Below, piece after piece: positions 27,856-28,572 of a stretch of DNA of 32,000 bases; the first letter of the stretch is position 1, and each line of letters starts with the position of its first letter. The notes under the pieces were generated by a model, which did no database searches, was not told where the DNA came from, and was given only the letters and a program-made list of their open reading frames with translations. This stretch comes from Fastidiosibacter lacustris (lineage in GTDB: Bacteria > Pseudomonadota > Gammaproteobacteria > Francisellales > Francisellaceae). A program made the translations under genes and the position numbers. Where the stretch lies: contig NZ_QLIR01000004.1 of NCBI RefSeq assembly GCF_003428155.1, positions 30,001 to 62,000 of the forward strand, in the 5' to 3' direction.

Positions 27856-28572
27856 ATGGGGGATAGAGAGTTGGTTAAAAATAATATCTTAATAGTGGGG
27901 GTTGATAAATATTATGTTAATCAATTAAGTCATCATTTAAAAAATTGCCAAATTATTAAATGTAACAATGTTTTACAACTAGATAAGTTTTTGATAACTC
28001 AAAAAGTTGATCTATTAGTTGTTTCAAGTGTTATCAATGGAGCATTGACTAATACATTATGCTATGAAGTTTACCAAAGCCGATCTGAGCTGCCTATTAT
28101 TGTGATTAGCGATAAGTCAGATATTCAGTTAGAGGTAATGTTTTACCAATCTGGTATTATAGATTACGTTGACAAGGGAACAGATATAAAGATTGTATCA
28201 GCAAAAATAAGTGCAATATTGAGAATCCTCAACAACAAAGATGAAAAATATAAGCATATTTTTTTTAATGATATTTGTTTGGATATAGATCAAAAATGCC
28301 TAATTGATGTGAGAAAACATCCTCATAAACTTTCTTTGTCTGAGTTTTTAGCATTAAGTTTTTTTCTAAAACAGTCAAATAAAATTGTCTCAAGAGATGA
28401 GCTTTCTTGGTGTGTATATGATCGACCATATGATGGTATGGATCGAACGATTGATGTATTAATTAGCAAGCTTAGAAAAAAGTTGAGTATAGCAACAACT
28501 AATGGTTCGTTGATTAAAACGGTTAATAGAGCGGGTTATATGTTTTGTGCAGATAATCATTCTGATCGGTAA
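27856..28572 (+). CDS. OmpR-family winged-helix regulator with degenerate (pseudo-)receiver domain
   Basis: 238 aa. The C-terminal trans_reg_C-type domain reads LSLSEFLALSFFL...VSRDELSWCVY...DRTIDVLISKLRKKL...IKTVNRAGYMF. The receiver-like N-domain has ILIVGVD in place of the acidic DD(D) pocket. It has DLLVVSSV where the phospho-acceptor Asp should be (Ser57, nt 28024-28026). IVISD (Ser for Thr) and YVDKG (Lys) are retained. No cognate kinase gene is adjacent. Confidence 0.8.
   Translation: MGDRELVKNNILIVGVDKYYVNQLSHHLKNCQIIKCNNVLQLDKFLITQKVDLLVVSSVINGALTNTLCYEVYQSRSELPIIVISDKSDIQLEVMFYQSGIIDYVDKGTDIKIVSAKISAILRILNNKDEKYKHIFFNDICLDIDQKCLIDVRKHPHKLSLSEFLALSFFLKQSNKIVSRDELSWCVYDRPYDGMDRTIDVLISKLRKKLSIATTNGSLIKTVNRAGYMFCADNHSDR

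Follow-up and report, generated by a model that had tools for sequence, protein, structure and literature searches.

The window analysed here is a 32,000-nucleotide (nt) stretch of DNA from Fastidiosibacter lacustris (contig NZ_QLIR01000004.1, positions 30,001 to 62,000). We describe in it an OmpR/PhoB-type regulator gene that lies upstream of a type IVb pilus operon and whose product has a receiver domain without the residues of phospho-chemistry. The gene occupies 27856-28572 of the plus strand, begins with ATG and is the sole long open reading frame (ORF) of that stretch. Its product of 238 amino acids (aa) is identical over the full length (100%) to the NCBI protein 'response regulator transcription factor [Fastidiosibacter lacustris]'. 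The gene and the parts of it that are referred to below are as follows.

27856..28572, + strand: orphan OmpR/PhoB-type regulator gene with an aspartate-less pseudo-receiver, 238 aa (from the ORF list, the 100% database match, Pfam and orthologue N-termini)
27880..28233, + strand: pseudo-receiver domain, aa 9-126, (beta-alpha)5 fold (from AlphaFold2, PF00072, column counts and PDB alignments)
27898-27900, 27901-27903 and 28024-28026, + strand: pseudo-receiver codons of G15, V16 and S57
28108-28110, 28165-28167 and 28174-28176, + strand: pseudo-receiver codons of S85, Y104 and K107
28255..28551, + strand: winged-helix DNA-binding domain (Trans_reg_C, 62.8 bits), recognition-helix region at aa 198-210

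As an earlier note on this DNA had stated, the gene is an orphan with no adjacent kinase: its neighbours are the genes for a pentapeptide-repeat protein and a pilin, and it lies exactly 582 nt upstream of the latter (start at 29155) on the same strand. No HATPase_c gene was found beside the regulator here or at the five orthologous loci. The nearest kinase (19913-21253, minus strand) is paired with, and overlapped by, a canonical regulator (21237-22043, minus strand), the one with which the earlier note had compared the orphan, that has the motifs 'VLIVDDD' and 'IIILDVML'.

Receiver domain of the orphan regulator

The winged-helix output domain, which had been described as intact, was matched by Trans_reg_C (PF00486) at aa 157-230 with 62.8 bits against a Pfam cut-off of 26.2. 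Response_reg (PF00072) reached 21.7 bits, under its cut-off of 30.2. Alignment to this model had been proposed as a check of the receiver; the match was sub-threshold, and the substituted positions were confirmed through other alignments and a structure model. The NCBIfam models OmpR, VirG and PhoB matched the full length at 81-86 bits, so far under their cut-offs of about 300 that the regulator is not a known equivalog.

The key receiver positions were checked in three ways: by HMMER alignment to solved regulators, in a 59-sequence alignment that included 53 canonical homologues, and in an AlphaFold2 model. The acidic pair had been read as G-V, and this was borne out by the 59-sequence alignment. 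Position 15, which is E or D in 52 of the 53 canonical homologues, is G in the regulator, and position 16 (D in 52/53) is V. Likewise position 57, which is D in 52/53, is S. The T or S at position 85 and the K at position 107 (each 53/53) are kept in F. lacustris as S85 and K107, and the P at position 108 (53/53) is replaced by G. The phospho-acceptor Asp of RegX3, in its 'LLD' strand, aligned to S57, and that of DrrB aligned to S58; the 59-sequence alignment, the model and the RegX3 alignment all place the acceptor position at S57, which upholds the Ser reported there. A search for an Asp that could serve as acceptor after all found none in residues 53-88.

The AlphaFold2 model (mean pLDDT 91.3) has five strand-helix receiver units. 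G15 and V16 follow beta1 (9-14), S57 ends beta3 (53-57), S85 ends beta4 (81-85) and K107 follows beta5 (103-106). The best PDB fold matches of the model by Foldseek were OmpR/PhoB regulators, with a top E value of about 1e-15, and receiver-only PDB chains superposed on it with TM scores of about 0.83-0.87 and a root-mean-square deviation of about 2 Å. Because Gly and Val replace the acidic pair, the catalytic metal should not be bindable, and because Ser replaces the acceptor, no phosphoryl group should be accepted on Asp. The alignments and the model thus show that canonical Asp phosphotransfer would be impossible for the regulator, which has neither the metal-binding pair nor the acceptor.

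Clade, conservation and comparison with known systems

A word-indexed search of 5.8 billion proteins gave five close relatives, 46-53% identical and all of them proteins of Caedibacter taeniospiralis or Cysteiniphilum, after which the scores dropped from 194 to 92 bits and ordinary Asp-containing regulators started. A scan of 185,579 species genomes gave only Caedibacter taeniospiralis, Cysteiniphilum halobium, Cysteiniphilum litorale and Cysteiniphilum sp. By profile search of 1.84 billion cluster representatives we found three clade clusters (50% identity), and the next six hits, which we inspected, were all canonical (DD, D, T/S, K-P). The best relatives beyond the clade are canonical regulators with 33-36% identity. 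The nearest of these, P0137, is 33% identical to the orphan regulator and 42% identical to the canonical regulator of the window. Given this kinship, the clade probably descends from an ordinary gammaproteobacterial regulator of the OmpR type, with an origin separate from those of HP1043/CosR and ChxR.

In Fastidiosibacter, Caedibacter and the three Cysteiniphilum species alike, the first acidic position is always Gly and the acceptor position always Ser. V or I stands at the second acidic position, S, G or A at the Thr/Ser position, and K, H, S or G at the Lys position; no clade member keeps the Pro that follows the Lys. Y104, three residues before the Lys (K-3), and D103 are invariant in the clade; so are S57, C36 and C69 across the three genera, where their neighbours vary. 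Cys31 was ruled out as a member of a redox pair, as it is Tyr in Cysteiniphilum litorale. The earlier statement that the conserved Ser/Thr and Lys are kept holds for F. lacustris and fails in the orthologues, which carry G or A at position 85 and H, S or G at position 107. Since S85 and K107 are peculiar to this species, they look vestigial and are probably relics, not a working half-site.

Within Cysteiniphilum, the ratio of nonsynonymous to synonymous substitution rates (dN/dS) is 0.16-0.22 for the receiver and 0.06-0.21 for the DNA-binding domain. The pseudo-receiver is therefore not decaying; it is under purifying selection. Across genera, identity is 36-43% in the receiver and 54-62% in the DNA-binding domain. 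To judge from these comparisons, the loss of receiver chemistry is ancient and maintained. In the DNA-binding domain, 43 of the 99 positions are invariant across the three genera (T198, D200-L202 and S204-L210 among them), and the recognition-helix region at aa 198-210 is nearly invariant across Fastidiosibacter, Cysteiniphilum and Caedibacter. The best PDB matches of this domain alone were RstA.

A receiver domain without the Asp phosphorylation site is known as an aspartate-less receiver (ALR), and its carrier as an atypical response regulator (PMC4395418, PMC12632262). Since the acidic pair and the acceptor Asp are lost and no kinase is adjacent, the regulator falls within the published definitions of both. 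The 2015 survey by Maule et al. counted 609 OmpR-type ALR sequences, 2% of proteins with a receiver and a winged helix-turn-helix (REC-wHTH), and Ser made up 15% of the acceptor substitutions in ALRs (PMC4395418). Many atypical regulators are intrinsic dimers (PMC12632262; CmrT in PMC12548384). Like other ALRs, the regulator has a receiver fold followed by a winged helix, a replaced acceptor Asp (here by Ser), a lost second acidic residue, a retained Tyr at K-3 and no partner kinase. Unlike them, its clade has an invariant Gly at the first acidic position, which 65% of ALRs keep, and its orthologues have lost the Lys position, which is basic in 70% (PMC4395418). Its clade, with three clusters among the representatives searched, is also tiny. 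The regulator is a narrowly distributed new addition to the well-documented aspartate-less OmpR-type class, and unsurprising to two-component specialists.

The class had been illustrated with HP1043 and ChxR. The assignment stands by the ALR definition, and both proteins are functional analogues of the regulator, not relatives by descent. Like HP1043 (HsrA) of Helicobacter pylori and CosR of Campylobacter, the regulator is an OmpR-type orphan with a degenerate receiver, and CosR (8uvx) was its best full-length PDB sequence match (E = 2.4e-12). HP1043 is an intrinsic dimer and acts without phosphorylation (PMC12632262, PMC8345958). However, the regulator is not orthologous to either: CosR (50.2 bits) and HP1043 (40.8 bits) score no better than the canonical RegX3 (49.3 bits) and DrrB (43.0 bits), and the nearest outgroups of the clade are canonical gammaproteobacterial regulators. 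HP1043 is an essential global regulator, whereas the Fastidiosibacter gene lies in a putative accessory region, and no repeat comparable to the HP1043 site ttTAAG-N5-tTTAAg was found in the regulator-proximal intergenic regions here. ChxR of Chlamydia trachomatis, likewise an atypical regulator of the OmpR/PhoB type, needs no phosphorylation for dimerisation and DNA binding (PMC12632262), but it has Glu at the acceptor position (PMC4395418) in place of the Ser found here. The PDB sequence search gave 50 matches at E <= 0.001, none of them a ChxR-named chain, and by sequence the two are of independent origin. In CmrT of Clostridioides difficile, an ALR-type protein of the OmpR family, the acidic motif is also altered (DGD); CmrT is a constitutive dimer that controls surface behaviour (PMC12548384). 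Unlike the stand-alone Fastidiosibacter regulator, it has a Glu acceptor, keeps the T and K, and is encoded on one transcript with a canonical regulator and a kinase.

A further analogy had been drawn with TcpP of Vibrio cholerae. The tcpPH genes lie upstream of tcpA in V. cholerae, and TcpP, a membrane protein whose wHTH is N-terminal and which lacks a receiver fold, acts on toxT, not directly on tcpA. The analogy holds for position: both are winged-helix regulator genes just upstream of a pilus operon, and the Fastidiosibacter operon has the order pilin, minor pilin, TcpQ, secretin, as in the V. cholerae tcp operon. It fails for architecture. The wHTH of the regulator is C-terminal, behind a cytoplasmic receiver fold, and two soluble domains cover the confidently modelled chain fully, unlike the membrane architecture of ToxR and TcpP.

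Pilus operon, synteny and candidate targets

The genes downstream of the regulator, and the gap before them, are as follows.

28573..29154: 582-nt gap between regulator and pilin, no ORF of at least 50 aa; presumed pilin promoter/operator region
28689..28709: perfect 21-bp palindrome ACATCTTTAA-G-TTAAAGATGT, then TTTTG; only copy in the window
28989..29020: 32-nt block, 134-165 nt 5' of the pilin ATG, with an 81% identical counterpart upstream of the Cysteiniphilum pilin
29155..29688, + strand: major pilin, type IVb-like, 177 aa, N-terminal methylation motif, Bundlin/PilS-like (Pfam N_methyl, Bundlin, PilS)
29869..30705, + strand: 278-aa minor-pilin-like protein with the annotation 'FimT family'; homologues found in Fastidiosibacter and Cysteiniphilum only
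30713..31393, + strand: TcpQ-domain pilus biogenesis protein, 226 aa from an inner ATG (the ORF opens at 30629), PF10671 62.6 bits
31409..32000, + strand: 5' part of the gene of a predicted lipoprotein (from the translation and synteny with a secretin gene)

The TcpQ-domain protein matched the annotated 226-aa protein exactly. No Pfam hit was obtained on the fragment 31409..32000 itself; its counterpart in a second Fastidiosibacter strain (GCA_024208055.1, L085) is a 538-aa PF00263 Secretin, and by synteny the fragment would be the N-terminus of such a 538-aa pilus secretin. The second strain has the same arrangement of regulator and pilus operon, and its operon contains TcpQ, the secretin, two unknown genes, a T2SSE ATPase and a 377-aa gene in the platform-protein position, for which no Pfam hit is on record. 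From this gene content the operon encodes a type IVb pilus of the Tcp/Bfp-like kind.

The two Fastidiosibacter strains differ strongly in two hypervariable patches, 29250-29750 (the C-terminal half of the pilin) and 30000-30750 (the C-terminal two thirds of the 278-aa minor-pilin-like protein). Here 40-81 differences were counted per 250 nt, whereas the rest of 19872-32000 has 0-5. The boundaries are sharp, which suggests that exposed pilin domains undergo diversifying selection or recombination.

In three Cysteiniphilum species the regulator lies upstream of a homologous pilus operon on the same strand, and the pilus proteins are 49-61% identical to those of Fastidiosibacter. One 401-aa ORF separates regulator and pilus operon in Cysteiniphilum litorale, where secretin and T2SSE are present; T2SSF platform matches were faint or weak on the corresponding 381-aa gene of L086 and L087. 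In Cysteiniphilum halobium and Cysteiniphilum sp. the two are kept apart by a fimbrial operon of 8 kb, of the CS1 chaperone-usher type. This operon (L002:12301-16844; also L006, L007) encodes a TcfC/CooC usher and a Fimbrial_CS1 protein, and is not present in Cysteiniphilum litorale or Fastidiosibacter.

A second type IVb pilus operon is present in Cysteiniphilum sp. 19S12-1, flanked by a different Trans_reg_C protein of 234 aa (L086:18098-18802, minus strand) with a LuxR/GerE-type regulator beside it (L086:17147-18010, minus strand). The 234-aa protein is 26% identical to the orphan regulator, and its N-terminal domain has the motifs 'HIVFIGNND' and 'LCLIHAAY'. PF00072 gave no hit on that domain, which is more degenerate than that of the regulator. 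This recurrence of a degenerate wHTH regulator at a second pilus operon is, though circumstantial, the best argument for a functional tie.

The closest orthologue (50% identity) is that of Caedibacter taeniospiralis, an obligate endosymbiont of Paramecium. Dot/Icm-type genes begin 3 kb downstream of it (L001:13946-20765) and include DotH/IcmK, TrbI/DotG-like, IcmW and DotI/IcmL. Upstream of it an unknown protein of 976 aa is encoded that is 53-55% identical to the upstream protein of about 1000 aa in Cysteiniphilum. The simplest history on these gene orders would be an ancestral arrangement of the 1000-aa gene, the regulator and the pilus operon, with loss of the pilus in the endosymbiont. As the regulator survives in Caedibacter without a detectable pilus, the pilus could not be its only target.

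The explanation that we favour, with moderate confidence, is that the regulator is a lineage-specific, kinase-less factor of the OmpR/PhoB type, with a pseudo-receiver as N-terminal domain and with neighbouring surface-structure genes as its likely targets. By analogy with HP1043, ChxR, GlnR and CmrT (PMC12632262, PMC12548384), the pseudo-receiver would be a permanent folding and dimerisation module, so that the winged-helix domain would bind DNA without phosphorylation, in vivo as well. Activity might be set by the amount of the protein, or by an unknown ligand or modification. From their position we infer that the likeliest targets would be the type IVb pilus operon directly downstream and, in some Cysteiniphilum, the CS1-type fimbrial operon; at least one further target is probably common with Caedibacter. 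Control of the pilus operon, which the earlier note had suggested, is plausible on this circumstantial evidence, in which the near-invariance of the recognition helix across genera is also counted.

The regulator may be of use as a test case. Very few OmpR-type ALRs have a known target or input signal, although they make up about 2% of REC-wHTH proteins. Here an obvious candidate target adjoins, a type IVb pilus operon with strain-hypervariable exposed pilin domains, and the hosts Fastidiosibacter and Cysteiniphilum are culturable, so the system is possibly tractable. Cysteiniphilum is an emerging pathogen of human wound infections and a suspected coral pathogen. For annotation, 'atypical, phosphorylation-incompetent response regulator' fits better than 'response regulator transcription factor'. 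In the collection of papers searched, we found none that links atypical or orphan regulators to type IVb pili or that mentions the regulator.

A number of observations weigh against this explanation, and several of them would be accounted for if the regulator instead controls other host-interaction genes, such as the gene of the ~1000-aa protein or the Dot/Icm-linked genes, and adjoins the pilus operon by inherited gene order in a low-GC accessory region. In two Cysteiniphilum species it is the fimbrial operon, not the pilus operon, that lies directly downstream of the regulator. The Caedibacter orthologue, 3 kb from the dotH/dotG/icmW/dotI-like genes, has no pilus genes within 10 kb, and homologues of two pilus proteins (the minor pilin and TcpQ) were found only in Fastidiosibacter and Cysteiniphilum, and none in Caedibacter. 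Since the upstream protein is shared by Caedibacter and Cysteiniphilum, the pilus synteny could be inherited gene order, and the 20-30 kb region has a GC content of 31-34% against 38-46% in core genes. The 32-nt block upstream of the pilin scored 31.1 bits by blastn, the 95th percentile of 100 shuffles and thus of borderline significance, and nothing consistent was found among shared hexamers and direct or inverted repeats in the regulator-proximal intergenic regions of the three genera. The alpha4-beta5-alpha5 dimer face shows no significant excess of invariant residues (13/40 vs 16/78, p = 0.18), so constitutive dimerisation rests on analogy only, and experimental work on the regulator or its orthologues was not found in the literature. 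Still, we think it rather unlikely that the regulator serves only such other genes. The direct same-strand arrangement of regulator and pilus operon occurs in two genera, and a degenerate wHTH regulator of its own accompanies the second Cysteiniphilum pilus operon. The protein encoded upstream in Fastidiosibacter is the unrelated pentapeptide protein, and the ~1000-aa protein is therefore no universal partner of the regulator. Besides, control of other genes and control of the pilus are not exclusive.

Two further explanations concern the input. The pseudo-receiver might still be a switch, thrown by a Hanks-type kinase acting on Ser57 or another Ser/Thr, by oxidation of Cys36/Cys69 as in RitR, or by a ligand in the remodelled pocket. 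The invariance of S57, C36 and C69 amid varying neighbours and the purifying selection on the domain are in keeping with this, as are the precedents of GlnR for Ser/Thr phosphorylation (PMC12632262) and of RitR for Cys-based redox control (PMC5965902). We consider it improbable. No kinase, redox-partner or ligand-related gene is conserved beside the regulator, and Ser is simply among the commonest acceptor replacements. Position 69 is Cys in all of a 12-sequence alignment with six canonical regulators among them, so that C69 is not clade-specific. The boldest form of the idea, a master switch of a Fastidiosibacteraceae host-interaction island (type IVb pili, CS1-type fimbriae and Dot/Icm-linked genes) operated via Ser57 or a Cys in the family to which both Cysteiniphilum and the Paramecium endosymbiont Caedibacter belong, appears distinctly improbable to us; were it true, a receiver domain would have been rewired to Ser phosphorylation or redox control and would govern pilus expression. 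Alternatively, the regulator could form a heterodimer with the canonical regulator 6 kb upstream (kinase 19913-21253, regulator 21237-22043) and so depend on phosphorylation indirectly. That complete OmpR-type pair stands in the same low-GC region in both Fastidiosibacter strains, P0137 as the nearest canonical relative of the clade is 42% identical to its regulator, and a heterodimer has been reported for CmrR/CmrT or BldM/WhiI (PMC12548384). Yet no canonical regulator or kinase was found within 10 kb of the Cysteiniphilum and Caedibacter orthologues, the two regulators of the window are only 27-33% identical, and they lie on opposite strands with three unrelated genes between them, which makes such a heterodimer highly improbable.

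Intergenic elements, start codon and surrounding region

A search of Rfam with the 582-nt gap at E <= 1 gave no match. With about 99% identity between the two Fastidiosibacter strains over the gap, footprinting against the second strain is uninformative. The palindrome at 28689-28709, of which 0 copies are expected by chance, can form an RNA hairpin of -9.8 kcal/mol (z = -2.8) and may be an intrinsic terminator of the regulator gene or an operator. The 32-nt block at 28989-29020 is a candidate promoter or operator. The motif patterns that were scanned comprised ACATCT, TTTAAG and RstA-like TACA and GTTACA repeats; as no motif is common to the three genera, no binding site can be named.

Conserved blocks upstream of the pilin that MAFFT had suggested were reduced by blastn with shuffles to an A-rich stretch near the ribosome-binding site and the 32-nt block. 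The 10-12-mers common to two Fastidiosibacter intergenic regions were dismissed as being at about chance level in AT-rich DNA, where we take 1-2 to be expected. Directly 5' of the pilin ribosome-binding site, 29084-29147 holds three A-rich 18-nt direct repeats (TAAACAAYAAAAAAKCAA-like), spaced 18 and 28 nt start to start, and the Cysteiniphilum pilin leader is A-rich here too.

The annotated ATG of the regulator (27856) has no Shine-Dalgarno sequence. An in-frame TTG at 27871 has the purine-rich GGGGGATAGAGAG just 5' of it, and from this TTG the N-terminus is collinear with the 'M[L/F]KNNILLFG' of the GTG-initiated Cysteiniphilum orthologues. The TTG at 27871 may be the true start.

Directly 5' of the regulator, 24241-27432 (plus strand) encodes the 1063-aa protein with many pentapeptide repeats, which is also present in the second Fastidiosibacter strain. 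It has Gly/Ala-rich hydrophobic stretches at about aa 685-800 and a low-complexity tail, and weak matches to its repeats came from Qnr-type proteins and two secreted effectors, PipB and PipB2. It was considered as a homologue of the ~1000-aa upstream protein of the other genera, and no homology was found.

Apart from this locus, too, the window is chromosomal DNA, with rplA-rplJ-rplL-rpoB-rpoC at 15-10362 followed by housekeeping genes. This ribosomal, rpoBC and housekeeping part has a GC content of 38-46%, against 31-34% from about 20 kb on (window 20000-30000). The low-GC stretch spans the two-component system, unknown ORFs, the pentapeptide protein, the regulator and the pilin, and its composition is consistent with an accessory or acquired region.

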